A stretch of DNA of 64,000 bases from positions 1,550,001 to 1,614,000 of the forward strand of contig CDPCPM010000125.1 of assembly GCA_976551045.1 (NCBI GenBank). The letters are read 5' to 3'. How positions within the stretch are numbered: position 1 is the first letter of the stretch; each line of letters starts with the position of its first letter. This document shows positions 573 to 63,278 of the stretch, one piece after another. A model generated the notes under the pieces. The model was not told the DNA's origin. It saw only the letters and a list, made by a program, of their open reading frames with translations, and searched no databases. The translations under genes were made by a program, and so were the position numbers. The DNA is from Glaucostegus cemiculus (Eukaryota).

Positions 573-608
573 AACTCCAACAAGTAAAGAAGAATTTTAC
601 GGATTGTG
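573..608 (+). CDS. micro-exon 1 (36 nt) ELQQVKKNFTDC
   Basis: tcttgttaacag|AACTCC...GATTGTG|gtgagc. Confidence 0.85.
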
Positions 609-3600
609 GTGAGCGAAGCAATGAGTTTCTTGCAGTTTAAGTCATTCAGCATTCTTCCTTGTTTAATCTCTAATTTACATGATTACTTCCGTGATTGTTG
701 AAATGAATGTTAACACATTAAAAATAGCGATGTGTCTGAATGACATTCTCCTAAGGGCATGTTACAATTGTTCAATCGATCTAGTCACACTGAGAGCTCT
801 AAATTCAGATTAAATTTGTGATGATGGATTCCAGACCAAAATTTGATCTGAGGTATCCATATTCTGAAATAAACCACCTGGGAGATTATTATTCATGTGA
901 TTTGCCTTCTTTAATGTTTCTGTTGGGAAAACTCGTGTCTTTCCACAGTAAAGACACGAGTCTACTGTGGAACGTGTTTTTACTTGAAGTAAAATGGAAA
1001 TTGCTGCGTGAAAGGTAAAATCTGTGGGATAAGAATAAAACTAACTGTTTGGGTTAATCATCACTTATCAGGAGTAAGTTAGAAAGCAAGCATTTTAAAG
1101 TTTCAGCGAAAGCGGAGAGTACAGTATGGAGCACAATCGACGGAGCTGACGACTAGTATTAATTGTTTTGTTTTTCAATGAAAAACGGAATGATTTCAGC
1201 CCTGTTGCAGAACGTCGCAACGGCCGCTCAAATAACTTCCAGATTTTATCTACTTCATAATTTTCCATTCTTCTTGTAATTAGAAAGTACTCTGACAAAC
1301 AAAATGAAAGGTAAGCGTAGAATTATGGCCGAGTTTTGGTTGTACAATTGTTTGGAACCAATATATTTTCAATTTAACTGGCCTGTTTATCTTACATCGC
1401 AATATATTTCTGAAAATAAACATCTTAGCGTCTTGTAGGCGACCATCCCCCAAGAGCAGTGACATTCCTAAAACAACTGAAGAAAATTGTTGGGTTGGCT
1501 CTCCATAGTGCTCTAAAATTTCTGAAAATGGTTTATCGCAATGAAAATGTCAGAAGTGACGAAGAATAGTGTCGTTTTCAGTATCAATTTTATTCAGCAT
1601 TAGTTCCTCGGCAACTAATAATATTTATTTTGGAGACCTGTTTAGTCACGGAAAATCAGATATGGTGAGAGTCTGCTAATACTTACACACTGAAGTTTAT
1701 CAACGACCTGTTATTTCCGCCTCTTAGCCTGAGACTTCGATAATGGCCAAATCATGATCGGCGAAACGGTTAATAGATTGCGATGGAGGCACGGAATAAA
1801 TAGTTTCAAGTTTTGGCATTTTCCGATAGAATTCTCCCAATTACTTCAGCGTCGGGGTTAATAGTGTTGCCTCTCAGATATCTGCCTTGTCTGGAAAACA
1901 AATATTCACCTTTGCTTGGAGCTTGTTCAGCCTGCGTTGACTCCCGACTTAAGTGCTTTACTAAACTTCACTGTGGTATCCTACGGTGGTGGATAAATGC
2001 TGTTTAAATGTGGTTTATTGCATTTTTTACTGCCCGCCCTATGCCTGTGGCCGCAGCTCTCGTTGTTCTTTGTCCGTTTAATGCCACGGGAAGTGTACTA
2101 AGGCATATTACGCTCGACTGGATTGTCAAGAAAAAAATATTATCAGGATTTATCTGAGTGTAAAACTTATCATTCTCGGTACAATACAAAATAATGGCTT
2201 TCGCTTACTTTCGCTCTTGAGTAAAGCTCATGAAATACTTCCAGTGTGGACAGAAATAAAATTATTCTTGGTTCCCTTTCCTTTTTGACAGAACTGCAAA
2301 AACTAAAAGAAACTATTCAAGATATCCGTGAGTATGCCTACCTTTAAAACCGAACGCATTTGGGCTAATATACGTTCACATCATTGTGTTTGATAGTTAA
2401 ATTCGGCGCATGGCATCCGTTCATCTGCGTCTCATGCTACACATCCTAAACTCCATTATATTGCTGTTGCGATGAATGTTGAGAGCCGGATATCTATGTC
2501 GACCGATGCCATATGATCTCCTTCACGCTATTACCTTAAGCAAATTTTGAACGCAGTCATGGTTTACTTTTCTTCCGTCCGCTTTACAATGAGGATTTCA
2601 AATGTTTCATCGGAGTCACTTTCTTATTAATAGAATTCATCGCAGTAAAAAAAGATTCTGTATTATGCGAACATTTCCAACGTTTAAACCTATTTTAAAA
2701 CATTGACGAGAGTGTCGCAACAAATTATAATCTGTGTCATCCATCGCGAATAAAAAAATGCATCCCCGATACAAAGTATCAGTACCAAAGACAAACAATC
2801 TTGGGCAGAAACAGTAAGAAAGTAGCTGTAATTCATTGTAACATTGTTGCTTCTATTATAAACAACACTGCCCTACGTTGACAACAGAAAGAAAGCTAAG
2901 CGGCAAGGAAAAAGGTAAGGGTATATCTGTGATATGGTGATTGGGTAAACAGTGTCTATCAACTGTATTGTAATGTCCGATTCTATTACTACATTGCACT
3001 GCATTGTATTACATTGCACAATCCGCCAGGTACTGTACTGAGTCCACATCCGAAAACGACTCAGAAACGAGCCCCTTTGCTCCAGAATCGTGTGCTTTAT
3101 ATTAAAATAATTCAAGCATTTTAAAATAAATTGACTTTCTGTCACGAGTTCAGTAATGTCTGAAAATGCCCCATACGTAAATACCCTGGCCTTCATTTGG
3201 CTGCTGACTTAATATTTTCGTTTCTCCTTGTATTCATGAGCAGTTAGCGATGGTTAATTGGCGCTGTCTTTGCTAGTGACGTATATAGCCTGTGTATAAA
3301 GAAACAAACAGGCAAAAAAAATAGAGCAGTTCAGGAAAAATCATAAACGGGATGCAGGTGGAGGTTTCGACACAGCAGGTGTGAGAATAGTGTTGATATC
3401 AAATCTGGAAACAAACTAGAGAGCGGAATTTATGATAAAATATCATCAATATTCTATAATTCAATGAACTCAGGACGGACATATGGCAATACTGCTCTGT
3501 TGGACGAGTCTTACGAAAGAAACTGAACGTATTAACGCATTGTTAAAAAAAACTGCTGTGGTGATGGAGTGTTCTAGTTCCTGCTCGCTCTTCGGGGAAG

Positions 3601-4542: not shown

Positions 4543-4580
<38 letters not shown>

Positions 4581-7500
4581 CCGCAATAGAGGGTAGAGAG
4601 ACACCTATGATCTTCCCTGCCGTTCTCACTATTTTCTGGAGGGACTTCCGTCCAGCAGCTGAGCAGCTCCCAAACCAAATGATGATGCAGTGTGTCAGGA
4701 TGCTCTCAATGAGAATTATGTACATCTCACTGGAAAAAAAAACTTCAATGAGCATGAATGGAATTCAAAATTAACCACAAAAGAAGAAATTATTCTCCGC
4801 ATAAATACGTAAAGTTAAATGCTGATGAAAGCGAATGCAACAGTTTTGAAAAGAAATTATAGTAAACATGTGTCATTAATTAAACTGGCAACTTAAATGT
4901 GAAAGGGAAATTTCTTGATATATGCATTAAAAAGAATAACGGAACCGAAAGGTCAGGGATTTTAAAGAGTGCACATAATTAAGCATGCAATGAAATGCAG
5001 TAATATTGCCGTCACTGACCATTGGTATTTGTGTTACTCGTTAAACAATGCATGCGTCTATACATCCACGCTCGTTCAAGATAGAAAGGAAGACATCAGT
5101 GGTGAGAAAGAATACAATCTCGGCTCTTTGCATATTAAATGTGTTATCGATGACATAGCTGAGGTACGACTACACAGAAAAAAAATGTAAAGTGTCTATT
5201 GCTCTCTAATTCAGAAGTTGTTGTCTTGGCTTCGTTGGTTTGATGGCTTTTAACAACAATCTCGTCCCGTGTCGCCTCCCCATTTTAGAACTTGAAAAAA
5301 GTAGAAGCAGTCTGCTCGATTGTGGTGAGTGAGTAAACAATGTTAGCTGATCTTCCGAAAACCAGGAAGGGACTTTTTCATTGCTTTAGTCCTTCCTTTT
5401 CTTTAGTGCAGTAATTGTCATCGCACAGTCGGAACTACGAATTACCAGCAGAGTCATAAAGTGAACAAACACGGAAGGAACTGATGAGCCAATTCGAGAT
5501 CTTTGAAATATCGGACTAATCTTCAGCAGCTCTTCTTTTCCAAAGGATAAGATTTTTTAAAAAAAGATATATTTAATCCAAATTGTAATGTCTTTATTAA
5601 AACTGCATCAATATAATTTCAAAAGAAGAATTTCAGTTTAAAGAAAATGAATGCAGTCTCCGCTTCAGTCGGCTGGTCCGTCAAATATTTATCACATAAT
5701 AGACCTTTGCCACTCGTTCTGTCGGATTGTTCTGTTTATTCTTGATATATTATTCACTTCTCTTTCGCACGTTCAATGAACCGTTCTCTTCATTTGCATC
5801 TAACTGAAGTCCATCTGCATTGCTGCCTATCCCTGGAAACGTGGTATTTCCACAAATGGGAATGCTATGCAAGTGATAGTTCCACAACTGTGAATGTCAT
5901 GCATGTGAGGAAATTAGGTTTAAAAATATACGTAGTTGATTCGATCCGGCCTTTATTGTTGACAGGACATCGTAGGGTTAAATTCCGGCCACTATCTGTA
6001 AGGAAATTGTATGTTCTCCCCGTGCCTGCGTGGGTTTCCGCTGGATGCTCCGGTTTCCACCCACATTCCAAAAACGTACAGGTTAGGAAGCTTGCCGACA
6101 CTTGCGGGCTTCCCACAGAACAGTCTACTCAAAGGATGCATTTCACTGTGTGTTTCGATGTTCGTGTGACTAATAAAGATATCTTATCTTATACATTTCC
6201 AAAGCAATCAGTACACCAGTCATTAAGACCGACTTTGGGAAATTAATCTCAAAGCAAACACAGAATAAATATTGCTGCGTTTTCAGAAAAATAACATACC
6301 CTACGTGTTGTGAACTGTTATGTATCTTATGCATGCTCCTATGCATTATTTGGGTTCTTACGTATTTACACACTATCATATTTGCAATTAGAGCAAAGCC
6401 TGAACAATAAAGGGAAAGGTGAGCACCGAATGACGACTGAATTTATTTCTTTATATGAACAATCGGTTTGATATTATCTACAATTCGAATTTGTCTGTCG
6501 GACTTAATTAATTTTAGTTGCTTCTGTTTTACTTTCCACTCTATCATTAAGGGCCAGGATAACTCTATTAATAAAACTTTCACCGTAAGACGAAAGTGTA
6601 ATTCCAAAGAATCAATCATGCATAGTCCAATGGACTGCACCGTGAATGTGGATTACCGCAGATCATTTCGACTAACTTCAGCGCACAAACTAACTCCACC
6701 TCCGCTTGAACAGTCTGCGGCCACAACCTCCGCTTGAACAGTCTGCGGCCACACACCTTCAAAACACTTATTTGAAGACAATATGAACTACTACAGCTCG
6801 AGATCAGAGCTTCGGTGCCTGGAGACGGAAAGTAATGTCAGGTTCATGCGTGCCTCTGGCAAGCGTTGTCAAAAAGTTAAAGTGCCATATAAAACCCACT
6901 GTGTCTGTAACAGCCATCAGGAACCCATCGACGTAAATCACATTTAAGGCACTCGGCCCATGCTTCCTATGTCGTAAACTTCCAAGGGCTCCTGTAAATA
7001 CTTCCTAAATTTTGTGAGACTACCAGTTCTACCCCCTAACGTATTCCAGATTTCAAATACCCTCATGATGAATGTCTTCCACAAATAAAATTATCTCCAT
7101 TTTATCTTAAACTAATGCCCTCTGATCATAGAACCAAGGATAAGGGGATATATTTCTCACTACCTAATCTACGTCACTCATTCCATTAAAAATCACAGTC
7201 TGTCCACCCTGGCCTTCTGTGCTTCAAAGAAGGCAACTCCAGCTTCTCTGCATAGATGAAGAGCTCCATCCCATGGAAGTACCTGGTGAATTTCCTCGAC
7301 AACCTTTCTATAATCTCGTCCTTCATATAATGTGGTAAGCAGAACTACACACATTACTTCAGTTTTAGTATAACGAATGTTTAGATATACCATAATCTCA
7401 TTGTTTCTATTGCCTTTCTCTTGGCTAATGAAGACAAACATCACGTTTGCCGTATTATTTACCTTACTTCTGAGTGTTGCCATCAGCAGTTCTTGGATTT

Positions 7501-10500: not shown

Positions 10501-13500
10501 CTATGCCGAATGTTTGATAATCCCGGCTTCCTCAAGCGCAGCTTAATACCATCCTTCCGATATTTTATCCAATAAACTTCCTACCACTAATATTGGACAA
10601 TACTGCTAGAAATTAAAGTATATTGGATCAGGAGAGATATACTGGCAAGGGTTAAATATGTTTGACAGGTAATAATTAGTGAGTAGTCCTTATCTGAGCC
10701 AACGGCTGCGGTGGTTGGGCTTGTGTACCAACTACCTTCAATTTCTGTCAAAGACGAGAATGAGAGAACCAAATGTAATATTTCAACTTTTGCCATCGAC
10801 ACGAAACATGGTGGGAATTGTGAAGAAATAGACCTGAGGCGACAGCGTGATTTTCACATATAGAGTGTATTGGCAGGTACAGGACTGATGTAGTACAATG
10901 TGGATATATGCGAACGTTGTCAGGAGAAAAAATAGCGTATGCTATAAATGACGAGTAATTAGGAAATGTTGATGTAAAAAGATTTAAAAAAATATTCGTC
11001 GTTTTGCACACCAACCACTAGAAGTAAAATGCAGATGCAGCAAACAGTTAAGAAGGCTGGTGCGTTATTTCCCAGCTGGTTTGTTTTCTGATCGAGTGTA
11101 ATCACCGATTAATTCCGACTTGCTTATAGCGCTTGAAAAAGTAAAGAAAGATAATCTTGAATGTGGTGAGTCTATTTCTACATTGACATGAAGATGACAT
11201 CATTTTCTTCCTTTCCGGACATAGTTGCGACGCCGCAGACATTTCTTGTCTTACAAAATTACAGCCAGAGCAGTTTAATATTTTTCACAAACATTGAACC
11301 GAGTTTTTCCAGGAAATATTCAGTCGTTTGGTGCAAATGTGTGATGGTGAGCATACAGTTAGCCTTGGCCTCAAGATAGATATGATCACATACATAAATG
11401 ACATGGTTTGGCGTATAAAACAGTGCCTACAAGGTATATGCAATTCATTATTTTCCATTTGTGTGAAAGGATGCAGATGCAAAATTTAAAAAAAACAAGG
11501 GTGTTTTAATATCCATAGCAGAGGGTTATCATTATTTCTTAGACAATCTTCCCCATTACGGTCATTCGTTCTGCAATTGGCGACAGTGAATGCAGTGTTC
11601 AGTTGCCTCGCTGGTATTCAGCTTCAACCAGCAACACTTCATTCGGATACTTCTCTAAAGTTCACAAACTCCGCCATCAAACAAATATCGTGTCTACAAA
11701 GGCAGTGAATCCCGCACGTCAAAATTTGCACGCACGTCCCCCTCACTATCGCTTCTTCTATATCTCCCTCTCTCTCTCTCTTTCTCTCTCTCCTCTCTCT
11801 CTCTCTGTCACACACACACACACACACACAGATAAAGAGAGAGAAATTAACATTCTGCACTGCGAACCATGAGGCATTTCATGAAATATTGTTTTACTTA
11901 ATCTAATTAGACTGGGGCAAATTGTTGTCAATTTGGTCTGAAAGAATCATTATTTCATCGATGAAGCTGATTACTAATGATTCGGATAATCAGTGAATTT
12001 GGTCGATGATCAGAATTTTTTTAAATTTAATACGTGACAAAATAAACTGGAACAAATGTCGACCATTTGTAGCTACTTCTTCAGAGCATGGCAGAGACAG
12101 TTCTAAACTTTATGTACAAAACGTAATACCTCAGCATTTAGTAAACATAGGATATTGTAAAAAGAAGAGGACGAATACAAAAGCCACCTGGCATTTCACA
12201 GAATCTGTAGAGATACATGTGGACTCATGGAATATTAAGTTATGCAATCCTTGTACGTGAACGTGACCGGATTTCACATTAATAGATGAAGGAGTTCTAC
12301 GATATTTATTGACAGGGTTATGCGTCTTTTTGGAGATGTTAGCTGATTGGTAACCATCATTGTAACTCTAATATCTTATTTTTATTTTAGAAACAAAGCT
12401 TACCAGCAAAATCAAAGGTGCCAATGGAAGAAAATTTTCAGAATCTTTGCAGCGGGGCCATCCATAGACCTGATTAAAGTTCAAACATCACACAAAATTT
12501 GCAGTCTGAATGATTTTGAACCTTCAAGTAGATATGGATATTAGTCATTTAAAGGGGAAAGTTATGTTGAAAGAGAAAGTGGTACTCTGATACATGGATG
12601 TAAGAATACAAAAGAAGTTTGCTTTGAAACTTTCAGGGCTTAATATTTACGTCAAATTCGACAAGAAACGCCTTAAAAAGAACTGAAGAAACTGAAGGCA
12701 ATATGGAAGATAGCATTGGTATTTTTGGACAGGAGTAGGAGTTCAGCTTAATGGTTATATTGGAATAGATGTGGTTATTGTTGTTCTCACGGAAGCTATG
12801 CATTTGAGAACATATTTGAAGGAGATATGTGAAAATATTACGCATTTTATAAGGCAAGTGAAGTTCCATTTCAGTTAGCTATATCAAGGACCAGATTATT
12901 CCATCAACAACAACAGCTGACAGACATATGTTTTGTGTTCGAAATGCCATCGTGATATTTGTGAGGCAATTCTGTGCATAAATGAGCACCCATTAGATAT
13001 TTCATCAATTTTTCATCTCTCGTGATTTCCGCATTATTTCAATGACTCTAGTTGCTATTGCAACCTTACTCTCTAGCAAGCTCAATGCAGCAACCGATGC
13101 CTTTGTCACCAAAAGAAGTTTCAGTGGGGAAAAGATCCGATTTTCAGATTTCTTTACTTGATTTAGCAAGCCTCAAATTCGTAGATCTCCGAAACCTCCA
13201 GAAACATTAGTTCAGAGGACTTGAAAATCCGCCATTAAGATCTTTGAAAAATATTATTATGAGCAATATCCAATCTCGTAATGTACTTCCCTTATATCTG
13301 CAAAATATACGTAGTTAACTGAGTTGATTAAAACAGAGAAAGAGGAGCTCCAAATTTCAAAGATTAATATTGAGTTGGTCTAAGCTGACTAAAGTCATTA
13401 AAATGTCTGGGAGTTATCTTTCGAGAGCTTCCAAGCTAAGGCTCATGAGCCACTGTGCTGACTTTAAAGCAATATAAGATATACTGGTATTTAGAGTGTC

Positions 13501-43500: not shown

Positions 43501-45780
43501 AATTGACTATTTAATCTGCGGTATTTGACTGCCTCCTGGAACGACGCTTCCAGGTAATGTATCCCCTTCCTTGGCGCATTGCAATTTCCTAATCTTAGAT
43601 TCCAGCTCATCCACTTCGAGCCGAAGTTTCTCAAACTATGGATATTTACTAAAGATTTGGTCACCGCTGATCCCTGCGGTTTCCATCAGCACTGAAAACC
43701 AAAGTGGCAATCTCTTAACTACCCTTATTTGAGTTTACTAAAGCATTTAAGTCAAGCAATGTATTTCATCCTGTTACTGTTGTCTTCAGCACAACGCAGT
43801 CTCTTACTCAACCAGGTCCATACCTCATAGTCACGTCACTCAATGGATGATGCGCTAAAAACATGTGATTGTAGTTGGGACAAAATATTTCATTTGCAAG
43901 ATATCGTAGTTTTTGTTTCAATTGATTCTAATTAACTACTTACTAGTGGACTATTTTCTTCTTGTACCACGCCGGTTAAAAGAAAAGGAAGAAAAATTAA
44001 CTATGACAATCCTGGAAGCAAAGTCCATTCACTGAGAAGGCTGCACCCAGAAAACTCTCCATTGTCAGCAGGCTGTGCGTCATGACTAACTTTGTTTTGG
44101 GTGACATCAAACAATCGTTACAGCTGGTTAATAACCATTAATTTTCAATTACACTAATAAGTGGACCACTCTTATCAGTGTAATTGAAAATTACAAGTTT
44201 AAGAAAATGCAACTTTAATATTAAATAGAACAAATGTTTCAAGTTGAAAATAAGGTCATCAATGGCAATATTTCATAGATGGTGCTCTCGGAGAACTTTT
44301 GTGTTTTAAGAAAAGGCGCTGTTCTTCCGTTATTCTGTTCAGTTCATCCCATAAAAATGCAAAGCCGTGGGCACATGCATGCTGAATGATAGATCGAGTG
44401 TTTTCTATTTTCTGGTTGTGCTGTTTATATACAATTATATTAAATGCACGAAACTAAAGTATGCTAATTGATCCGATTTATGTCTGCGAGTTCTCGAATG
44501 CAATCAACCATTCAATCTCATCTACCTGCAACTGCTACAAGTTTTCAAGTTTGGTTTTCAAACTGTCTATACTCTTCCGTTCAACTGTCTCATGTAGGAC
44601 CATTTTCAAATAACTTCAGGATAAATAATTTACCCAACATCCTTCTGGATTGGTGAAGACACCTTTCTAGATCATATAATAATACTCCTCTGTTAGAAAC
44701 ATGTTTTGTTTCTTGTACATCACCCATGCTTTAACAACCCCTATTAATCTTTCCTTTGGGTTGTCCTTGTGCATGGAAAAGGATCCTGGTTCTTTATAGT
44801 TTTTATTATTGTCCTCACAGTTGTATGCTTATGCTGCTAGTATGGCAATGGAATTAAATTCTTCAGAAAATTATCACCAGAAAATTGCGAGTATAGAAAC
44901 TGAGAACGGATGCAATGGGTCTTTTTCCCTTTTAGGAACGAAAGACGAATTAAAACTAAGGCTTCGTTCTAATGACAGAAGGCTTTGTGCGTAGAATTAG
45001 AGAGAACTTCTCCACTTGTGTGGTATAAATCAAATAGAACTAACGAATCTGCCAGAACCTTCAAGGAAACAGGGACAAAAATATCGAGAAATAAATAGGA
45101 ATCTCTGGCATGCGAAAACAACAAAGCATGTAGGATAGATAAATTTCGCAGCACACTGCAATCGCATGTGAGGAAAGAGAAAATAAGGGGATATGATGAG
45201 AGATTGATGTGATGAAAGGAAATGCACAATAGGGCATAAATGCCTCGATGCTCTGGTTGGTCAGATTGCCAGATTCTGCGCTGAATATACAAAGTTATCA
45301 TGTGATTTACATGTTCTTAGCTTGTTTTAGCTAAATTACAAGTATTTTTCTATGCCACGATATGTGCATAAAATGATGTTAGCAACTGTTGACAGATCTT
45401 TTCTCGTCTCAATAAGTTTTTTTTTCAATTTCAGAAAATGAAGATCTTTCAAAAAATGTGAAACAGTTGGGTGAGAAAATGACACATTTCTTTATTTATT
45501 TGGGTGATTATCGAAGGTACAGAATAATACTGAAAGGTGGAAACCAAGATTACAATTGGACAAATCATTAGAGTCCATGGAAGAAAACATATAATGGAGA
45601 AAACATTAAAATCTGGTACGGAAAATGCAATTGCTAAGGAAATACTGGCTAAATAAAAGAATAATCTGAGATACAACCAGTTCAAAATGTAGAGAAAGTT
45701 GCATAGCAGAACATGGCGAGATGACTGTAAAGGCAGAGAAAAACACGATGTCACGAGAAAGGATATCACTTCTGAGATGG

Positions 45781-45859
<79 letters not shown>

Positions 45860-48800: not shown

Positions 48801-51800
48801 TCTAAGATAATGAAGCAGATCGCATACAAATTCAGCAAGGCCTGGATAACATGCAGGCTTGGACTGAGGGGTAGCAAGTGACACTCGCAACACACAAGTG
48901 CCAGGCTAATACGATATGCAACAAGAGAAAATCAACGGCATTCAGTTGCATTCTCATCGATGAAACTCCCACTGTCAATGTCCTGAGGGTTAGCCATTGA
49001 CCAGAAACGGAAACATAATGTACCACAAAAACAAGTCGGAGGTTTGAAATCCTGCGGCAATTAATTCAGCTCCTAACATCTTCCCCCTCCCCAAGTCTGT
49101 CCACCACCTCCAAGGCTCTAGTCAGAATCAGAATCAGAATCAGTTTTATTGTCACAACCACATACATACAAAGTATGCAGAGGAGCGATATACCGTCCTC
49201 CTCATGGTCTCGTCCCATACAAAAAAAAATGACATAACAACCAACAGAGACACATACACACTTGGCAGAATACATAGTATAGATCATTACACCTTAAAAG
49301 CTAAGGGGATTGAACTTAAATTCAGGATCGATTTTCACTTACACATATACATGTGCAAAAGACATCAAAGACAACAAAGGACACCTGGACAAAAACATCA
49401 AAACATTAACAGCCCCCCTGCCTCACCCCGCACCGACGACCACCTCCAACCCCCCCAGTCCTACAACCTCAGGGCCCACAGACCATCAACAACCCCCGGC
49501 CCACAGTCCGACCACCTCCGGCCCACAGTCCGACCACCTCCGGCTCCTTCGCCTCCGGCACCACCTCCAGCCCACAGTCCGACCAGTCAGGGATGTGATG
49601 GAACACTCTCCACTTGCCTGGATGGGTGCAACTTCAACAACGCTGGCTGAGCTCGACACCATAGAGCACATAGCATCCCACGGCAGGCATCCCATCAAAA
49701 ACTATTCAGTCAACACCAGCGACGAATAATAGCAGCAGTTTCTGGCATCTAAAGGATGAAACTGCAGCAACTCACCCAGACGCCGCAGACAGCACTTTCC
49801 AAACTCACGACCTCTGTCAGCTAGAAGGGCAAGAGCAGCAAAAGCACGGGAACACCATCACCTGTAAGTTGCCTTCCAAGCCACACGCCATCGTAACTTG
49901 CAAATAAATCGCCATTCCTTCATCGTCCTGGGTCAATAATATGGCTCTCACTCGCTTACAGCAATGTGGATATACTCACACTTCAAGAACACAGCTCACT
50001 ACCACCTTCTGCAGGACAATTAGGGCTGAGCAATTAAATGCTGGCTCAGCCTGAGAAGCCCACATCTCTTAAAAGAATACAAAAAGAATGTATGAGCTGA
50101 ACTATGATTATTAAAAATGGGTATTCAATTTAGCTGGAAGATTTGAACATTTGAAACTTAATACAACAGATGCTCAATATCTATTTTTACAATTGTTTTG
50201 ACATAATAATTATTTCTGATACTGCATTTAGTGTCTGCGTTCTCTTTTACATAATGCTTGTATTATAATTTTTACTAAGGGTTGAGTTGCTTAAATGTTT
50301 AATGCATTAACACAATTGCGCTATGGGTATCCTTGCAATTATTAGATTTTGTTTACTATCAATCAATGATTTGGCATGATTTTGCTTCAGCTCTGTTATT
50401 ATTACTATTTTTACTCTGGTTTAGAATTTTCCAAGTGCAGAATTGATGGTGAGTAGGCTGTCATTAAAGCAGGTGGCTTTATTTTTTGGGAAATTGCCTT
50501 GCGTTCAAAGTACCATTTGCTGATAATAGATTTTCGTTACAAATTAATGTAATCACAGAAACTTTAGTACCATACCTGTTCTGCTGATAGTCCAACTTTA
50601 CCACCCCTATTAGCTGCAGGCAATAAACGTGGAGTTGTTAAAGTGGCCCTCAACTGGCAAATGAACAAACTGGCTTCTAAACTACCATACTCGAAAATCT
50701 GCAGGGCAATAGCGGATTTAGGTTTCACCGTCTTAACAATCATAATTTCACATTTGTAACTAAGAATAATGTAAAGGCTGGGGCCTGTTTTCCTTAAATT
50801 CAGGTCAAATAGTTTCTTGTCAGCGAAGTTTTTCTGCATCTTTTAATACCTCGATCAGATTATTTTGATGATTCCCTTCATGAGATATTTTCTCTCAAAT
50901 TGATCTTCCAAATGATCGCTTTCATTCCCGAGAGCCTGCTCTGAAGAACTTCCAATGCAAATGGTTCCTTCCGAATTGAAATTGAGGAGAGCATACATTT
51001 ACACACATTTGGGGAAACTTTTCCCACAGTAGAGGTATATAAATCTTCAGAGCAAACATTTCTTCTTGAAGTTACGGAGAGCATACATCTGGAAGTTATG
51101 ACTATCTTTTCTCAGTGTGGACCGATTTTTCAGCACTGGCACGTTCAGGTTGCTATCCAACTTCCTTCTCTTAAATGATGTAACTTTTCGGAAAATAATA
51201 AATTAAAAGGAAGTCAGTCCGTGCAACTGAGAGTAGATATTGGCTTCACGTTGGTTGTCCGCCATACGTGCCCCCCACCAACCCCACCCCCGCCCGGTGT
51301 TCTGTTCTTAGAGAAAGTAATAAAGTTCTTATGTGCAGCCCTCTAGAAATGAATTTCCAACGGAAGTTGGATTTCGACAACAATTAAACGTCCTTCATGT
51401 ATACTTCTCTAGTGTTAATATTGAAAGACCCGTTCAAAATGTGTAAGTTCAATTGCGGATGTAATGAGCCAAGAAACAGAGAAATGACTCATTACTTTGG
51501 GCTCTCACAGCATATTTCCTGCGCATCGAAAGGCATGCAAACTCGGCCCCCATAAAAAGTATGAGGGACATAGATAGGGTAGTTGGCAGGAAACTTTTCC
51601 CCACAACAGAGGCATATAAAACGGCAGGGCATCGGTTTAGTGCAGGAGGTAAAGATAGAGTTTAGACAGGGGCCGAAAAGGACGCCATTCGCACAGAGTG
51701 TGATTCGAAGTTGAAACGCACTCTGGGAGGGTGGCGAGGGCAGTGTTTCTCATATTTTAAATGTCTAGACAAGCATTTGACAAACGACAAGGCAAAGTAG

Positions 51801-54800
51801 AAGTACTAGTTAATAGTATTTGGAAGGATTGGTACAAGATGGATGGCATGGGCATCCGAAACCGAGGATTTGTTTCTGTGCTGTGTAACACGACGACACC
51901 ATGCCTCGGGAACCCATGCTCAATAACGCGAACTTCACCAGTCCACGCAAAGGTGAGAATTTTCAATAAGTGAGAAGGAAAACCGGACGGTGTTTCAAAG
52001 GAACGGGGACCGGTAAGAAGATTCACTGCGTCGTGGTTGCTGATATCTCTACCATGCGTTCCCCTTCAAGTTTCTTTTTCAAAACTTATCATGTCGCCAT
52101 GGAATGTTAGCTATGTAATGCATTCCTAATGGCTAAGTTATTCGAACCCCAAGATAAAAATCTGAAATGACATTTATCCTCCAGGTGATAAGCAATCAGG
52201 TGTCTATTTGCAAACAATTACTGCAGTAAAATGTTAAAGAAATAACTTATCGACCTTTGTTCTCCACTGCCTCTGTCTGAAGTTTGCACTGATTTTTTGC
52301 GATGTTGCAGATGAAGAATTACGTGAAAAAGATGGAGGTGATGTCACGGTTACAATTTTAAAACTCTAGAGTTATGAATTAAAACAGTACTTTCAGTATC
52401 GAGATCCGCACTGAATGCAGATCGTGTCTCTCAGTGTTGAGTCCAACTTCCTCACTGCTGACTGTGGTTCCTTTCTTTACCTTCGGTGACGAGCTGAAAT
52501 TTCCCTATCAAACAGTTTATAATATAGTAAAAATAACTCTGTGAAATAATTCATGAGAAAAGTTTCGAAGAGTTTTCAAATTTCTCATGTTCGTAAGCCT
52601 TGCATTCTGGTGTTGTTATATATGTATTATTTTCCTTGATAAAATCAACATTATGGCTATTAAATGAACACGATAATTTAGGAAATGCGTTTGCATTTCC
52701 ATCCAGGTCTGGATAATGCACAGCAAGCGTCAATTATTCAACATCTTGAAAGGGAGTTGAATAAATGTTAAATACATCAGTACGTGTGATGTCGTTGACG
52801 TAGCAATAAATACCACATTGAAATTAGGTGCTTTAAGTTCCACATGTGCTGCTGTTTATTTGCGCAAAACGTGAACTGTAAATCGGAAAATATATCTTCA
52901 AAATCAAGAGCAGCATCATACCTAGAATCCAGAGGAAGCACCACTGATTTTCTTTAATTTCATATTGCGTCTCAGGTCAAGCTGATGGGGCATAATCATC
53001 GATTCGAGCATAACAAGACGAGAGATGGGGGATTCTGAGCCTTAAAATGAGGATGGTAATCTGGCGACGCTGCATGGAACCTCCAGTGAATAAGCAGTTC
53101 CTGGGTTTACCCCTGCACACTGCAACGTATTTCAGCAGTGGAGAGGGGGTGCAGGTGTTCAAACACGAGAGTAAATGATCTCTTGCTTCTCTTGCCTCGG
53201 TTGTTAAATACCATTGTGCTCAGAAGAGTTCTGTAAACTATTAACCTAAAGAGTTGGTCTGATATTTTGTCTGAAGCCTCATGTTTATGCCAGAGATAGC
53301 TGGCACGTTTACTGCGCCCGGTTGATTTGAATAGGCTAAGTGAAAAATGGATGCTAGGCCCAGGACTGGACAATATGACTGTTCGTGCCTGCTCGGGCAA
53401 TCATTGCGATCATGGCAGATCATCGCTCTCAATACGCAACTCCTGCTTTGTTCCCAAACTCCTTGAAACCCGTTATTGCCAGAAATATACATTTCTTTTT
53501 CTTAAGTAAAAATAGCAATTTTTCCTCTCGATAGCGAATTCAACTGTTTAATTTGCTTCTGTTCAAAACAAAAAGGTCTAATTTCAGCCTCTAACGTAAG
53601 ATTATGGCCCCACGTTCTGCATCTCATAGCCCCATGTTCCATCTGTCCACCCAAGTGAGAATGCTGTACACTTCTTTTACACCCGCTCTTATTCTTCTTT
53701 ACTGCAATGAATACAAGCATAGTCGACCTAGTCTCTATTCACAGGACGGTCCCACCATCTCAGTAAATCAGTGTGGTGAACTAGGCCATATCAATAGCAA
53801 GAATATCCCTTCCAAGTTAAGGAGAACGAAACTGTGCAAAATACTCCAAGAGTAGTCCCGCCAATGCTCTGCGACAATCATGTTTGCTCATATATTCAGG
53901 GATTTACAAATCACAGAGACGAGCCCTTTGGTCCAATGTCCATGCCAACTAAGGAGCCCACATGAGTTAGTTCCAATGCCTGTGTTTGGTCCATAGCCCT
54001 CTTGACCTTTCCTTTCCATATACCTGTCCAAATATATGTTAAACCTTCTAGTTGTACCTTCGTCTACCATCTCCTCTGGCAGCTTGTTTCATATACCCAC
54101 CACCCTCTGTGTGAAAATCTTTCCCCCATGTGCCCTGCAGTTCTTTCCCCTCTTACCTTAAATCCATGATATCGAGTTTGAGACTCGCCTACCAAGCGAA
54201 AAGGACCGTGACAATCCATCTGATCTATGTCCTTCAGAATCTTATGAACCTCCATAAGGTCACCACTCAAAGTCGTTCGCTCCAAGGAAAGCAGTCCCAG
54301 CCTATCCTGTCACTCTTTATAATTCAAGCTCTCCTTCCTCAGAAACATCTTTGTGAAACTTTTTTGCACAACCTGTAGCTTATGGCACATATTCACTCAT
54401 CAAGCCTTGCCGGACGTTTTGACATAGATTATCAGTTAAGCTCACATTCCACAACACTGAGGTCCTTTTCTCCTTCAGCTCTTTACCCAGCTTCCTTTGG
54501 AGGTTCCCGATGAATCTGCTTCCGGTACCCCTTCAGGATGCATATCTCAGTATATTTCCCTTCACACAAAAGCCAGCTGTTTCCACATTTCTCCTCCACT
54601 CATTCCGGCTGAAGAGACAGTGAGGTCTGTTGTGGAAAACAAAAGTGCAAGGAAAGGGACCACGAGTCTGTCAATCGGGCACTTGAGCCTGCATTGTCAC
54701 TCAGTAAGAACACAACTGGTTCTGAACCTCATCCACTCTACTATCCAATTCCCATATTCCACTATTATCCAGCGCCCGAAATCCTCTGTGGTTGTATCGT

Positions 54801-60800: not shown

Positions 60801-63278
60801 CTATGATGTGACATCATGCTTTGAAGATCAAGAGCTGCAGAAGCAAGCATTTTCTGTATGGACATAATAAATCTTTATATAACGGCAGCTAAAGACATGC
60901 TTTCATTTACTTTCAGAAATAACAGCTTTGAGAAAAAGACTTCAAGAAGCAGGTCAGTGGAACAAAAAGCAATAAAAAACAGAGGCAATTTGTTTTTACG
61001 TCGACGACGAGAACATACTGAAGCAACATTTGACAAAGAACCAAATCAGGAGATAACGGGGCTGGTGATGAAAAGGATGGTTATAGCCTTAGGTCGGGAA
61101 AGAGAAAATTGCATATTGATGGAAGTAATCTCTGTTATCCAAACCAGTAAGTTTTTCAACATGACTGCCAATGAAGAAGGGATAAAACAAACACAGGACA
61201 TGCTTAAAACACTGAGCAGGTCAGGCAGCATCTGCGTAGAGAGAAAATGGTTTAACGTTTCAGATCCGAGACACTTCTTCAATACAGAAAGATGAATACC
61301 TGGCATTCCCAAGGACAAAAGATTCAAAACAATTCAGGAGATTCGTCGTATTTACGTTTCGGGGAAGATAAAAAGGTCTGGTGACCGGACAGACGAGCAA
61401 TTTGAACATAATTAGAATTTATTGGATCCATATTAGTAAGATCTCGTGAGAATGTGCGGAGAATGAAAATGGAATTAATGTGGAGTTAGGGCAAAACGGG
61501 TGGTTTATCGTCAGTGCGGACTCTATGGGCCGAAGGGTCTGTTTCCAGGCTGTATCTCTGTGACTCTAAGATTCCATAACAGTTATTATACTGTATTAGG
61601 GAATAAAAATTCGCCGTGGCAGAGCACAGCCGTAATGACTTTCATACCCAACACACTGCTCGCCGAACACTCGTTCCTGGACCAAGCAAGCTGAATTGCG
61701 TTCGTCGAACATCATCACCGCCCATAGAATCCACTCGCCTACACGCAACTGAGCCGAATGCGGAGATCCCATCTCGTTGGTTCTCCGCACTTTGGTCTAG
61801 TGAGATGGGGGTGTGGTGTCCATAGCCAACAATACTGAAAAATCAATTAAAGCTTTGAACTGGATGTACTTTATTTTAAATGCCAATCCCATGAAATGAA
61901 CGGGGAATTCAGTCCTAAGCCACTCCATGAAGAGAAATACGTCGTTGTTAAATGAGGTCGCTGTTCTGCAGAGATCCAGGGCAGATTTTCCAGAATTTCC
62001 TCTTTATCAAATGAGATGCGTTCCATTTTCTCCATCTATACTGATGCAGCATGGTCTGTTTTTATTAACAGTGTGAACGGTTTCCCCCCATGCAGTAAAT
62101 CTGTGATTTTACCTTGATTTTCGATCATTCCTTCAGACTAAGCATTTTTTTATGAAGAAATACGGATGCGCACATTAATTTCGAATAAAGCCAGCTTTAA
62201 TATTCTTAAATGGACTGTAAACAACTACTTGAAATTAAATCAGTGTCGGGGCTGGGAATGACAAGCAAGGAAGATATATAGTGAGGATTCAGACAAAATA
62301 GCTTCTCGGGGTTTTTTTATCCGAATTAACTCTCCTATCTGAATCAAGGTGTTGAAAAGGTTGAGAGAAGGCTTCGTTTCATTTGGGGAATTCCTGAACC
62401 TTCTTCGAAAGCATCGTATCAGTAAAATTAGGGGAGGAGTCCAGTAAACAGCAAAATGACTGATACCATGATACTTAATCGGCTTCAATCCTTTGAGCCT
62501 GGAGATAGGAATCACAAACTCAGAAACGTGTTACTTTTTGCCACTGATGCTAAAAGGAAGGCAAAGAAACCCGAAGACAAAGCACACTTTCTTTTTCGAT
62601 CTTCGTCTGCGTAGTAATCCCACGATTTTCCACTGATTTAAATCTGTTCCTGGTGTAGGGTAACTAGATCTCGCCAATATCGCTTTGTCACCTATTGACT
62701 CTGGTCAAAGTGGAACACGAATATTCCACTTTAAATTTCCACCTGGTTTGTAACTAGTGGCTTAGAATGATGCGATAGAAGTGCAAATTATGATTACAAA
62801 CAAGAAGGAATCTGAAGCAGCAGCAGCATATGAATCAACATTTCAAAATAGATTTGAGGCCCTGGATGACATGGTTATCCGGTAATGACATAGTTTCCGA
62901 TGAGTAAAGTGCACTGATTTCCCTAGCATGCATTTCTCATAATCTGATGAAGATAATATCCAGCATGTTTATCTTCGGCGGTGAATACATATAACGGCTG
63001 GAACAAGGAACAATGTTTCAGCAAAGGAAGATCTGCTTCATTAAAATGAGAGGCAGCATATCTGCAAAGTAATGCACATGACCGTTTAATCACAATTCAT
63101 GTTTGGGGGTTTCTCGGATCTTTCCGGTTTATCGATCTCTGTGCCCACGTGGTTGAAGCAATATTTGGCGAAAGGTTTTGCATTGAAAGATAGGTAAAAA
63201 GTATAAATAAGCAACCGGCGAAATCGAAAAACCCTATCTCTCTTGTTGCAGAAAATGACTTGGAGAGGAAAGAGACAG
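573..63278 (+). CDS. Internal part of a multi-micro-exon gene (28 exons, 861 nt, 287 aa) encoding a long heptad-repeat coiled coil with a 21-aa period; 5' and 3' ends outside the window
   Basis: 28 AG...GT-bounded phase-1 exons (12x36, 15x27, 1x24 nt) in near-strict alternation. Spliced translation is stop-free: ELQQVKKNFTDCESTLTNKMKELQKLKETIQDIQRKLSGKEKELEKSRSSLLDCEQSLNNKGKALEKVKKDNLECETKLTSKIKELETLKNNIYDREQSLSRAEKSIGKLKDYIEDIELKLNKKEKEVGKLKDNLNDTEQRLGKKEKDVEKLRANLQEAESSLKAKTKELNNLNKDYTDIDDKLRTKEKELNKLKIRLDDTDGQCVQNMKALEEKLKTSEETLLSTQAENEDLSKNVKQLEETLHSKEEEFSKCRIDDEELREKDGEITALRKRLQEAENDLERKET (first residue assumes an upstream G). Confidence 0.88.
1284..1310 (+). CDS. micro-exon 2 (27 nt) ESTLTNKMK
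   Basis: ttcttgtaattag|AAAGTA...ATGAAAG|gtaagc. Confidence 0.85.
2292..2327 (+). CDS. micro-exon 3 (36 nt) ELQKLKETIQDI
   Basis: ctttttgacag|AACTGC...GATATCC|gtgagt. Confidence 0.88.
2888..2914 (+). CDS. micro-exon 4 (27 nt) QRKLSGKEK
   Basis: gttgacaacag|AAAGAA...GAAAAAG|gtaagg. Confidence 0.83.
4098..4740 (-). mobile_element. 3' fragment of a Rex1/Babar-type LINE with (GATTCT)n tail, interrupted by (TA)n
   Basis: Minus ORFs 4513-4755 (ILTHCIIIWFGSCS) and 4283-4513 (DPSHPSYHLFTLLPAGRR...RLCNSFFPQAIR) match the typical C-terminus of this LINE clade. Confidence 0.8.
4546..4579. repeat. (TA)n microsatellite
   Basis: Direct reading. Confidence 0.95.
5289..5324 (+). CDS. micro-exon 5 (36 nt) ELEKSRSSLLDC
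   Basis: ccccattttag|AACTTG...GATTGTG|gtgagt. Confidence 0.88.
5975..6192 (+). mobile_element. Degenerate V-SINE-like element
   Basis: Core ttctccccgtgcctgcgtgggtttcc...gctccggtttcc shared with the SINEs at 20.7 and 59.7 kb; different 3' tail ending aataaagatatcttatctta. Confidence 0.65.
6392..6418 (+). CDS. micro-exon 6 (27 nt) EQSLNNKGK
   Basis: tttgcaattag|AGCAAA...GGGAAAG|gtgagc. Confidence 0.85.
6698..6753. repeat. Perfect 28-bp tandem duplication
   Basis: acctccgcttgaacagtctgcggccaca x2. Confidence 0.95.
6945..7750 (-). mobile_element. Old degenerate CR1 LINE, 3' part (host of the younger CR1)
   Basis: ORF 7193-7606 is decayed CR1 ORF2 C-terminus (FGRTN...ERDLG); FADD-like motif near 7715. 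Confidence 0.7.
7765..10203 (-). mobile_element. Young 5'-truncated CR1 LINE, ORF2 (end of APE endonuclease plus RT), frameshifted
   Basis: ORFs 9539-10258 (LDLVLGNE, GDSDH), 8836-9618 (KSPGPDGI, QHGF, DLSKAFDKVPH) and 7841-8704 (KFADDTK, RPHLEYCVQFWSP); CR1 3' end motif near 7770-7810. Confidence 0.95.
10204..10590 (-). mobile_element. Old degenerate CR1 LINE, RT part (continues into 6945-7750)
   Basis: Minus translation DWLADRQHRV...VPQG; decayed DFSKAFDKV-like motif. Confidence 0.7.
11130..11165 (+). CDS. micro-exon 7 (36 nt) ALEKVKKDNLEC
   Basis: acttgcttatag|CGCTTG...GAATGTG|gtgagt. Confidence 0.86.
11762..11830. repeat. (CT)n(CA)n compound microsatellite
   Basis: Direct reading. Confidence 0.92.
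12391..12417 (+). CDS. micro-exon 8 (27 nt) ETKLTSKIK
   Basis: tttttattttag|AAACAA...ATCAAAG|gtgcca (weak donor). Confidence 0.8.
12989..13904. repeat. Long inverted repeat (arms ~12989-13246 and ~13656-13904, ~410-bp spacer)
   Basis: ttttcagatttctttacttgattt vs aaatcaagtaaagaaatctgaaaa; aatgcagcaaccgatgcct vs aggcatcggttgctgcatt; ttcaatgactctagttgctattg vs caatagcaactagagtcattgaa. Confidence 0.92.
14015..14050 (+). CDS. micro-exon 9 (36 nt) ELETLKNNIYDR
   Basis: tctctcgcag|AACTGG...GACCGGG|gtgagt. Confidence 0.88.
16004..16030 (+). CDS. micro-exon 10 (27 nt) EQSLSRAEK
   Basis: ttattttgcag|AACAAA...GAAAAAA|gtaagt. Confidence 0.86.
17812..17847 (+). CDS. micro-exon 11 (36 nt) SIGKLKDYIEDI
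   Basis: ctgctttttag|GTATAG...GATATCG|gtgagg. Confidence 0.85.
18967..18993 (+). CDS. micro-exon 12 (27 nt) ELKLNKKEK
   Basis: tctttcaactag|AACTAA...GAAAAAG|gtgagc. Confidence 0.87.
19157..19351. other. Assembly gap (195 N)
   Basis: Run of N. Confidence 1.
19665..19700 (+). CDS. micro-exon 13 (36 nt) EVGKLKDNLNDT
   Basis: ttttcttttag|AAGTTG...GATACAG|gtcaat. Confidence 0.83.
20705..20957 (-). mobile_element. tRNA-derived V-SINE, full-length young copy
   Basis: Minus strand has A box TAGCGTAGCGG, B box GGTTCGATTCC, V-domain gggtttcctccgggtgttccggtttcctccc and an A-rich tail; close match to 59658-59900. Confidence 0.88.
22422..22448 (+). CDS. micro-exon 14 (27 nt) EQRLGKKEK
   Basis: ttttgactcag|AACAAA...GAGAAAG|gtactg. 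Confidence 0.84.
24270..24305 (+). CDS. micro-exon 15 (36 nt) DVEKLRANLQEA
   Basis: ttttttttcag|ATGTGG...GAAGCAG|gtcagc. Confidence 0.86.
27137..27805 (-). mobile_element. Penelope-like element 3' fragment (GIY-YIG C-terminus and 3' terminal region)
   Basis: ORF 27515-27802 EHLRSVRR...HFNS...RRRLEEHHLIFRLGSLQPDGHNIDFSN; terminal motif ctgctgagttcctccagca. Confidence 0.82.
28200..28620 (+). mobile_element. Degenerate CR1 ORF1 (esterase-like) fragment
   Basis: CLPxxRVQDV and HVGTNDIG-like (cacgttggtactaatgacatagg) motifs. Confidence 0.7.
28900..29560 (-). mobile_element. Highly decayed CR1 ORF2 fragment
   Basis: Residual RT-region motifs on minus strand. Confidence 0.45.
30036..30062 (+). 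CDS. micro-exon 16 (27 nt) ESSLKAKTK
   Basis: ttttgtttcag|AAAGCA...ACTAAAG|gtaggg. Confidence 0.86.
30986..31025. repeat. 10-bp unit x4 (tgtgcRatWa)
   Basis: tgtgcaataa tgtgcgataa tgtgcaatta tgtgcgataa. Confidence 0.85.
32297..32332 (+). CDS. micro-exon 17 (36 nt) ELNNLNKDYTDI
   Basis: cttcctttcag|AATTAA...GATATAG|gtgtgg. Confidence 0.84.
33513..33539 (+). CDS. micro-exon 18 (27 nt) DDKLRTKEK
   Basis: ttttacttatag|ATGATA...GAAAAAG|gtagat. Confidence 0.84.
35310..36680 (-). mobile_element. Old CR1 LINE 3' fragment
   Basis: CR1-like 3' end near 35315-35360; minus-strand KFEDD (FADD-like) near 36290 and LFDKVPRER (AFDKVPH-like). Confidence 0.7.
36882..36917 (+). CDS. micro-exon 19 (36 nt) ELNKLKIRLDDT
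   Basis: ttctttctcag|AACTTA...GATACAG|gtgaga. Confidence 0.88.
37505..37531 (+). CDS. micro-exon 20 (27 nt) DGQCVQNMK
   Basis: atcataaacag|ATGGAC...ATGAAAG|gtaaat; poor pyrimidine tract but correct size, phase and AAAG end. Confidence 0.68.
39225..39810. mobile_element. Cluster of Penelope-related short terminal remnants in opposing orientation
   Basis: tgctggaaatgtt.. and ctactggaggaattcag.. face cctgctgagtacttccagcatttt; similar remnants at ~15640, 38600, 55795-56190, 56960-57075 and 61200. Confidence 0.55.
40432..40458 (+). CDS. micro-exon 21 (27 nt, in a 36-nt slot) ALEEKLKTS
   Basis: tcttattgcag|CATTGG...ACTTCAG|gtgaat. Confidence 0.8.
40850..40876 (+). CDS. micro-exon 22 (27 nt) EETLLSTQA
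   Basis: atcctatgcag|AGGAAA...CAAGCAG|gtaatg. Confidence 0.8.
41290..42200 (+). mobile_element. Old CR1 LINE RT fragment
   Basis: Decayed VTLFKK, SLTS, IYINDLEEG and DDTKL-like motifs. Confidence 0.7.
43440..43690 (-). mobile_element. Probable CR1 ORF1 N-terminal fragment
   Basis: Decayed leucine-zipper-like coding on minus strand resembling CR1 ORF1. Confidence 0.4.
44139..44193. repeat. 55-bp near-perfect palindrome
   Basis: TAATTTTCAATTACACTAATAAGTGG-A-CCACTCTTATCAGTGTAATTGAAAATTA. Confidence 0.92.
45435..45470 (+). CDS. micro-exon 23 (36 nt) ENEDLSKNVKQL
   Basis: ttcaatttcag|AAAATG...CAGTTGG|gtgaga. Confidence 0.84.
45783..45858. repeat. (GT)n microsatellite
   Basis: Direct reading. 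Confidence 0.97.
46320..46397 (+). mobile_element. Short 3'-end copy of the Rex-type LINE with (GATTCT)3 tail
   Basis: ttgtgacaataaaatgattctgattctgattct; reverse complement of the ends at 4098 and 49122. Confidence 0.75.
46494..46520 (+). CDS. micro-exon 24 (27 nt) EETLHSKEE
   Basis: gcttcccacag|AGGAAA...GAGGAAG|gtaacg. Confidence 0.84.
46650..48130 (+). mobile_element. Old CR1 LINE ORF2 3' half
   Basis: Decayed GKSCLTN, KAFD, INDRG...KFVDVT and LYKTLIQPHLE motifs. Confidence 0.72.
48650..50070 (+). mobile_element. CR1/L2-clade LINE 3' fragment interrupted by an insertion at ~49126-49590
   Basis: VMEHSPLAWMGA motif; 3' end ctcactaccaccttct...caattaggg...aatgctggc; a related fragment at ~54850-55190. 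Confidence 0.72.
49126..49590 (-). mobile_element. Short non-coding retroelement with Rex-type 3' tail and ~21-bp internal repeats, flanked by agtcag
   Basis: Tail (tcagaa)n and ~110 nt similar to 4098-4210; ccacagtccgacc x3. Confidence 0.7.
50425..50448 (+). CDS. micro-exon 25 (24 nt, in a 36-nt slot) EFSKCRID
   Basis: ctctggtttag|AATTTT...ATTGATG|gtgagt. Confidence 0.72.
51555..51890 (+). mobile_element. CR1 3'-end fragment
   Basis: MRDIDRV...LFP...GHRF-like coding; tgtttctgtgctgt terminus. Confidence 0.6.
52311..52337 (+). CDS. micro-exon 26 (27 nt) DEELREKDG
   Basis: gatgttgcag|ATGAAG...GATGGAG|gtgatg. Confidence 0.78.
53900..54380 (-). mobile_element. CR1 3'-end fragment
   Basis: ORF 54064-54285 GDLMEVHKILKDID...HGFKVRG. 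Confidence 0.75.
58200..59165 (+). mobile_element. Rex1/Babar-type LINE RT 3' fragment
   Basis: GVPQG*VLS, KFADDTAVVG, VERVDSFQFLGV, KKAHQLLYFLR and PTHLGHSLFFLLLSGRRY motifs. Confidence 0.85.
59658..59900 (+). mobile_element. tRNA-derived V-SINE copy
   Basis: A and B boxes, V-domain, (taaaaa)n tail; close match to 20705-20957. Confidence 0.88.
60917..60952 (+). CDS. micro-exon 27 (36 nt) EITALRKRLQEA
   Basis: ttactttcag|AAATAA...GAAGCAG|gtcagt. Confidence 0.87.
63252..63278 (+). CDS. micro-exon 28 (27 nt) ENDLERKET
   Basis: tcttgttgcag|AAAATG...GAGACAG|gtaact. Confidence 0.86.

Follow-up and report, generated by a model that had tools for sequence, protein, structure and literature searches.

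CD23 carries a 21-residue repeat, schistosome MEGs are made of symmetric micro-exons, the coiled coil of TRIM proteins is antiparallel, and B30.2 domains are mostly cytosolic. The closest described counterparts of the locus analyzed here are the butyrophilins and the chicken BG proteins. In the accessible sections of PMC8813856, BG proteins are described as having a V domain, a transmembrane segment and a long heptad tail, and butyrophilins as having short heptads and a B30.2 domain. According to the available portions of PMC5938342, the BG tail consists of heptad repeats, about 38 at most, on 21-nt split-codon exons, and zipper protein, a BG tail in soluble form, regulates actin-myosin. Human BTN3A3 has four small exons ahead of the B30.2 exon (PMC5829056, available in part), and butyrophilins are present in cartilaginous fishes (PMC12841164, likewise in part). 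In the 2.85-Gb genome of Glaucostegus cemiculus, ordinary butyrophilins (contigs C200 and C581) encode IgV, IgC and a transmembrane segment, followed by 33- and 27-nt phase-1 exons and then B30.2. A Trp motif precedes B30.2 in two of the three butyrophilin genes read (WKRICSHQ and WERVRFFE), the sequence of BTN3A1 at this place being EWKKALFKP.

Here we analyze a 64,000-nt window of the same genome (contig CDPCPM010000125.1, C125 in the following, positions 1,550,001-1,614,000), together with 854 kb of C125 read around it. The window is the middle part of a 460-kb array of micro-exons which resembles the butyrophilins in its small phase-1 heptad exons, a Trp-bearing 27-nt exon, a single B30.2 exon and the retention of three basic pocket positions plus Trp391. 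It differs from them in having about 172 small exons instead of two to four, in lacking any Ig or membrane exon that we could find, and in a B30.2 domain belonging to a separate clade. With chicken BG and zipper protein it shares a long coiled coil encoded by many symmetric split-codon micro-exons (PMC5938342 and PMC8813856, as far as available). The BG tails, however, are described in the accessible material with mostly 21-nt exons in about 29-38 repeats behind IgV and a transmembrane segment and without B30.2, whereas the 460-kb gene pairs 36- with 27-nt exons, spans about 250 heptads and ends in B30.2, no ectodomain having been found. TRIM-B30.2 proteins (TRIM7, TRIM21, TRIM39) and their RING-less relatives likewise place a coiled coil before PRY-SPRY, but in the 460-kb gene no RING or B-box was found, and the coil is micro-exonic and far longer. 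In contrast to CD23, the terminal domain is B30.2 rather than a C-type lectin, and the repeat unit is split into two exons; there is no sign of kinship of the 460-kb gene with either CD23 or the schistosome MEGs. The earlier note on this window had already pointed to BG and butyrophilin tails as analogues, a comparison strengthened by the small-exon tail and the B30.2 end. Judged by its sequence, the gene would be a member of none of the butyrophilin, BG and TRIM groups and appears to join a long rod of micro-exons, as in BG, to an end like that of butyrophilins, with no ectodomain as far as the search went. The reading we favour, and consider reasonably likely, is that of a single cartilaginous-fish gene for a predicted anchor-free parallel coiled-coil rod of ~1,900 residues with ligand-binding B30.2 heads at one end.

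Within the window, 28 AG..GT-bounded phase-1 micro-exons lie on the forward strand between 573 and 63278 (12 of 36 nt, 15 of 27 nt and one of 24 nt at 50425), all 28 with a GT donor. Together they amount to 861 nt, or 1.37% of the span, and read in phase 1 as 286 whole codons without a stop. The earlier note, which listed no individual exons, had given the same exon number and summed length and likewise a stop-free spliced product. Profile scans seeded with a few exons yielded 12 clear 36-nt and 12 clear 27-nt exons, the next candidates scoring far lower; four weaker exons at 37505, 40432 and 40850 (27 nt each) and 50425 (24 nt) complete the set. In the first 20 exons, from 573 to 37505, 36-nt exons (class A, or head exons) at 573..608, 2292..2327, 5289..5324, 11130..11165, 14015..14050, 17812..17847, 19665..19700, 24270..24305, 32297..32332 and 36882..36917 alternate with 27-nt exons (class B, or tail exons) at 1284..1310, 2888..2914, 6392..6418, 12391..12417, 16004..16030, 18967..18993, 22422..22448, 30036..30062, 33513..33539 and, weakly scored, 37505..37531. 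There are zero exceptions, exactly as first proposed. Downstream of these, a 27-nt shortened head exon (class C) at 40432..40458 is followed by a weak tail exon at 40850..40876, a 36-nt head exon at 45435..45470 by a tail exon at 46494..46520, a 24-nt shortened head exon at 50425..50448 by a tail exon at 52311..52337, and a last 36-nt head exon at 60917..60952 by a tail exon at 63252..63278. The shortened exons form a third class, of 27 or 24 nt, that begins like the 36-nt exons. The strict 36/27 rule holds for exons 1-20, and for the array as a whole we recast it as a head exon, either of 36 nt or shortened to 27 or 24 nt, followed by a 27-nt tail exon. Profile and splice model support these exons together, the one at 11130..11165 being the sole window exon below the threshold of the held-out splice model; the exon at 17812..17847 has an alternative acceptor 6 nt inside, which would shorten it to 30 nt.

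A scan of the flanks for 27- and 36-nt exons, suggested in the earlier note, showed that the array continues upstream of 573 and downstream of 63278 and that both ends of the gene lie outside the window. For positions beyond the window, 1,550,000 is subtracted from the contig base. An automatic caller of non-overlapping exons returned 160 exons; by hand curation 15 were added from profile scans, three were dropped and three re-bounded. The resulting array of about 172 micro-exons runs over ~460 kb, from -296,157 (C125 1,253,843) to +163,084. The curated 172 exons (99 of 27 nt, 65 of 36 nt and eight of other lengths) sum to 5,217 nt and encode 1,738 aa without a stop. The last 27-nt micro-exon, at C125 1,713,058-1,713,084, lies on the forward strand outside the window and is followed by the terminal B30.2 exon on the same strand at C125 1,713,892-1,714,412 (window +163,892 to +164,412). 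Array and terminal exon together form a frame of 1,911 aa with its sole stop at the end, 1.25% of the locus being coding, and the array is likely read as a single frame into B30.2. Introns within the array have a median length of 2.1 kb and reach 13.4 kb at most, and a stretch of N at 19157-19351 sits between two exons that preserve the alternation. Heads and tails alternate at 148 of the 170 neighbour steps; in 10,000 shuffles the mean was 85 and the maximum 111.

Just upstream of the first curated exon, an open 63-nt segment (L050:2761-2823, -297239) resembles a 27-nt piece joined to a typical 36-nt exon without an AG of its own, and would represent either a fused unit or a decayed acceptor. 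Between -281601 and -227669, near the 5' end, 27-nt exons that are 81-89% identical recur in the same order, as traces of a multi-exon block duplication. In the intron around 7844-10264 of the window, LINE-like retroelement remnants were recognized by eye on the reverse strand, and a 1.3-kb piece near 7763 has a counterpart of 98% identity at -272573.

The exons were further assessed with a splice-site model trained outside the window only. On the forward strand of the window this model recovered 27 of the 28 exons, and on the reverse strand it called no exon of 27 or 36 nt. Across the 462-kb locus, splice-only calls comprised 74 exons of 27 nt and 62 of 36 nt, as compared to two and four on the reverse strand (854 kb) and one and three in the flanks (392 kb). 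Without a coding filter, the lengths of the splice-only calls peak exactly at 27 and 36 nt. Phase-1 stops occur in none of these 136 exons, compared with 66 and 90 in the other two frames, a test that is partly circular in that the model's training exons had first been found with coding profiles. With a combined splice and composition score above 20, 146 calls fell inside the array, and none in 390 kb of flank or on the reverse strand. Furthermore, the conserved Leu residues are encoded by five or six different codons, and codon-position entropy is highest at the third position (1.69/1.61 bits, as against 1.22/1.23 bits at the second). The varied Leu codons and the most variable third positions point to selection acting on the protein. 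The introns have fully diverged and the splice sites are retained. We regard it as very likely that the micro-exon gene is real.

Hydrophobic residues of the spliced product peak at a period of 3.5, in agreement with the heptad coiled coil with a 21-residue (12+9) unit first described in the earlier note. Core positions were evaluated in 58 pairs, each made up of a 36-nt exon plus the 27-nt exon that follows it. Four core positions are hydrophobic in 90-93% of the pairs, and the other two d positions are occupied by Thr/Ala/Cys and by Lys (74% Lys/Arg). Cys is present at position 12 (d) in six of the 58 pairs, and about two dozen Cys residues occur in the whole rod. The residue at the exon junction is Glu in 111 of 159 junctions; it lies at g and faces a basic e position (69%), while a second g position is often basic (40%) and faces an acidic e (53%). 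This charge pattern fits a parallel, in-register coiled coil, in which two, possibly three, chains would zip together via Glu(g)-Lys(e) and Lys(g)-Glu(e) pairs. Units of a shortened head plus a tail, 18 residues in length, would act as stutters in the rod. With 0.1485 nm per residue, the predicted length of the rod of about 250 heptads is about 258-260 nm. Such a rod might serve as a cytosolic spacer or tether, comparable to the BG tail or zipper protein.

The last micro-exon, of 27 nt, encodes WKKIINCK and is followed by one B30.2/PRY-SPRY exon and the stop codon; a terminal domain of this kind was among those named in the earlier note as worth looking for, and it is situated at the 3' end. 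In a Pfam search, the terminal exon matched SPRY with an E-value of 5e-16 and PRY weakly (E 0.007), and it is the one B30.2 copy in the 854 kb read. The best match by sequence in the PDB is the B30.2 domain of BTN3A1 (E 4e-26). An AF2 model of the head, of moderate confidence (pLDDT 65.6), matches the B30.2 structures of TRIM7 and BTN3A1 at E-values of about 1e-11, with TRIM7 ranking first. The head is only 39-42% identical to the closest skate-cluster protein, as compared to 71-73% between the head of a paralogue on contig C274 and its electric-ray match, and the head of the 460-kb gene appears to have diverged fast.

For the comparison with BTN3A1, residues of the phosphoantigen pocket were taken from the accessible parts of PMC5829056 and PMC7348870. 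In a pairwise alignment that passes through gappy loops, and with BTN3A1 numbering placed from the W350-H351-Y352 motif, W81, R83, R106 and K158 of the head align with W391, K393, R412 and R469 of BTN3A1. The combination of W81 with a basic residue at 83 and at 106 is present in eight of nine members of the head's clade and in none of 141 other B30.2 domains. A basic residue is found at 158 in eight of the nine. Three of the six phosphoantigen residues of BTN3A1 are kept as basic (K393, R412, R469), and H351, H378 and R418 are not kept, H351 being described in the available part of PMC7348870 as a key residue in phosphoantigen sensing. By these residues the head does not belong with the BTN3A1-type sensors. 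A conserved basic pocket in the head is nevertheless likely. Structures of TRIM7 have been solved with C-terminal peptides (PDB entry titles), and since TRIM7 is also the top match by fold, the ligand might just as well be the carboxyl end of a peptide. The heads might bind an anionic ligand, either a phosphate-bearing small molecule or a peptide carboxyl end, via the basic BTN3A1-like pocket. This mechanism of a ligand-binding tether is a reasoned guess. A further-reaching idea, which we consider doubtful, is that cartilaginous fishes possess an ancient, undescribed, membrane-free family of butyrophilin tails, with rods of at most ~260 nm encoded by about 170 micro-exons and heads bearing a BTN3A1-like basic pocket, acting as intracellular sensors of phosphate-bearing metabolites or pathogen products. 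If true, this mode of sensing would need no membrane receptor and would predate mammalian BTN3 by far.

Among 151 matches to the head in the genome, the next best is located at C274:546,048-546,539 (130 bits), all others scoring 99 bits or less; the head itself is single-copy. The paralogue on this contig, C274:598007-546033(-), has the same design with about 35-40 micro-exons of 27, 36 or 24 nt. Its start exon ends with ATG TCA G (Met-Ser) about 430 bases before the first micro-exon, and no signal peptide or membrane segment is present at this start. Of 42 candidate exon rows of the paralogue, 19 match RefSeq Narcine XP_069775384 in order. This protein also starts with Met-Ser, and two of its isoforms (predicted models) differ by the absence of whole exons, one of 9 aa or two of 8 aa. 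On contig C274, a SLAM/CD2-type gene with IgV, IgC2 and a transmembrane segment (by eye) is located at ~705,900-710,300 (-), with TRIM-like B30.2 genes further on.

In a representative protein library, the closest single-domain matches to the head are 33-50% identical. Eight clusters were looked up: six carry names from catshark, skate, electric ray, elephant shark and basking shark, one is unnamed, and one, taken as control, is a bichir butyrophilin. The lineage restriction supposed in the earlier note is in line with this result, six of the seven closest B30.2 relatives looked up carrying chondrichthyan names and one being unnamed. Its suggestion that the gene might be unannotated has to be modified: relatives are annotated, under wrong names and often as fragments. 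Their database names are TRIM39/58/69-like or zinc-binding protein A33-like, and Pfam shows only PRY/SPRY in them. The chondrichthyan coiled-coil plus B30.2 proteins in RefSeq (XP_069775384, XP_038672306, XP_038668997, XP_055510696, XP_042191566 and XP_078422387), which bear no family name, share the B30.2 clade of the head, and XP_069775384 also shares the 27/36/24-nt exon grid via the paralogue. Their models are short, in contrast to the far longer 460-kb gene. XP_038668997 begins with repeat-derived sequence, and Leucoraja XP_055510696 with a hydrophobic stretch of 17 residues, possibly a signal peptide and possibly an artefact of annotation. In a quick tree search with 69 of 101 domains, for which 32 of 94 eligible library domains had been left out at random, nine B30.2 domains form a separate long-branch clade (SH-aLRT 100), a clade chosen by similarity rank, whose named members are all from cartilaginous fish. 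The head carries the clade's invariant W96, R106 and G109. The ESM Atlas contains SPRY clusters with representatives of 1,277 and 1,579 aa (scores 0.92 and 0.88), one of them named putative leucine-rich-repeat protein, a hint that databases already contain long forms. We found no paper on a chondrichthyan coiled-coil plus B30.2 family in the open literature; supplements of genome or proteome papers may list members.

For the start of the 460-kb gene, scans for exons with Met plus a hydrophobic stretch and for short Met-phase-1 exons gave weak candidates only. A donor at -321660 looks like exon 1 of a neighbouring GPCR gene and was rejected as start exon. The first clear 36-nt exon is a possibility, as it offers an ATG in good context, yet Met is found at this place in six of 62 such exons. 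Two open stretches at -390632 and -363576 were dismissed as parts of the array, as they lie beyond the GPCR gene and no link to the array was found; they are related to each other, have strong donors and similar downstream sequence, and are located between GPCR genes. Because the start exon of the 460-kb gene was not found, the reading of one membrane-free product from one transcript rests on the paralogue and the relatives. On this basis the protein is probably membrane-free.

It could be argued that the locus encodes a true membrane receptor of the butyrophilin or BG type, its Ig and membrane exons lying farther upstream or having been missed, with the rod as a giant cytoplasmic tail. The butyrophilin-like last exon and the B30.2 domain would suit this, as would the many 21-nt split-codon exons of the BG tails (PMC5938342, in its available part) and the position of the SLAM/CD2-type Ig-Ig-TM gene on the same strand 110 kb upstream of the paralogue. 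However, none of the 43 butyrophilin-type IgC (PF22705) matches of the genome is on C125 or C274, and among 40 filtered forward-strand frames from 300 kb upstream (frames cut at 10-kb borders) none matched an Ig, RING or B-box family, only GPCR and retroelement matches being obtained. A tblastn search upstream with 161 proteins for RING, B-box or Ig returned repeats only; it also missed the SLAM-type Ig exons near the paralogue, and tblastn is accordingly weak for distant Ig domains. Moreover, an intact GPCR exon is situated 20 kb upstream of the array, no GPCR gene being found inside it, the paralogue and its RefSeq orthologue both begin with Met-Ser, and Ig, RING and B-box domains were absent from all seven clade relatives scanned. 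A membrane receptor is quite unlikely in view of these findings, and a stalk of a CD23- or BG-like membrane protein is not borne out, as neither an Ig exon nor a C-type lectin was found and the Met-Ser of the paralogue leads onto micro-exons. We assign a similarly low likelihood to a secreted rod-and-head protein with a signal peptide and a disulfide-linked coil, of the collectin or CD23 type, in mucus, plasma or egg-case fluid. The Cys residues at d positions, among them those at position 12, would suit disulfide linkage, and the hydrophobic start belongs to a Leucoraja protein whose B30.2 cluster has its best match in this genome in the 460-kb gene. In addition, a 'zinc-binding protein A33-like' entry is listed in a shark skin proteome (PMC10707392, available in part), its kinship to the family being an assumption. 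Against secretion, no signal peptide is evident by eye at the start of the Narcine, catshark and Callorhinchus models, no convincing exon with Met plus a hydrophobic stretch was found upstream of the 460-kb gene or of the paralogue, and most B30.2 domains are located in the cytosol.

The array might instead be a row of several shorter rod genes, or its exons might be a pool for alternative use, with only the last part joined to B30.2; either would account for the short annotated relatives (175-460 aa) and for the isoforms that skip single exons. Such an arrangement is unlikely: the called exons are stop-free without a long gap along the 460 kb, the long same-strand duplications inside the array (<=1.3 kb) resemble dispersed repeats, and the long ESM Atlas representatives, as a lead, argue for long forms. 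It is hardly credible that the array makes no protein, whether as a decaying relic or as a pattern arisen by chance. The fast divergence of its B30.2 domain in comparison to that of the paralogue would be expected of a relic, but the absence of in-frame stops from all 136 splice-only exons, the varied Leu codons, the most variable third positions and the persistence of splice sites amid fully diverged introns speak against it.

With regard to the origin of the favoured single rod gene, the mean identity between repeat exons is 47.5% (36 nt) and 41% (27 nt), and the repeats are old. Only two matches among 344 flanks were obtained when introns were compared for homology. The similarity among 36-nt exons does not follow that of their next exons (Mantel r -0.06; 1651 of 2000 permutations as high) and follows that of the previous exons weakly (r 0.10; 83 of 2000 permutations as high). 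The growth by exon-pair duplication proposed in the earlier note has thus left no traceable signature, both intron homology and partner co-similarity being negative or weak. It is a plausible process, compatible with the alternation though without a sequence trace, and selection keeping the heptad register accounts for the alternation equally well. The gene might have arisen from the inner half of a butyrophilin-type gene, with the Ig and membrane exons either lost or absent from the outset, and its symmetric phase-1 exons would have multiplied before the split of chimaeras and elasmobranchs.

With about 172 coding exons, mostly of 27-36 nt, across 460 kb, the gene represents an extreme design for a vertebrate. 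The building blocks themselves are known; the gene unites two halves known separately in chickens (BG-like rod) and mammals (butyrophilin-like B30.2 head). A protein family of sharks, rays and chimaeras has probably been hidden, since annotation mostly catches short, misnamed models. The locus also provides a natural system for the ordered splicing of long runs of micro-exons, and the family-specific basic pocket offers a direct biochemical test.

As to the surroundings of the gene, the CpG observed/expected ratio was followed on C125 from -380 kb to +130 kb; it amounts to 0.62-0.71 within the array, compared with 0.22-0.46 in parts of both flanks, and may reflect low germline methylation of the domain. 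Upstream, a cluster of rhodopsin-type GPCR genes (7tm_1) is present at L052:2964-3863 (-317036 to -316137) and at further places as far as -577 kb, its copies being ~40-70% identical to the nearest one and some of them broken or inverted. Downstream, where the Pfam scan took in 70 of 225 non-repeat frames, a single-exon Shaker-type K+ channel gene most like Kv1.2/KCNA2 (L039:6327-7877, +), some 86 kb from the B30.2 exon, is a possible synteny marker. MHC class I and class II beta gave no match on C125 or C274, and the contigs lack chromosome placement. Large clusters of other B30.2 genes are present on contigs C172, C200, C581, C661, C841, C475 and C196. Butyrophilin-type IgC exons, about 30 in number, and MHC class I-like exons occur there as well, in part on shared contigs.
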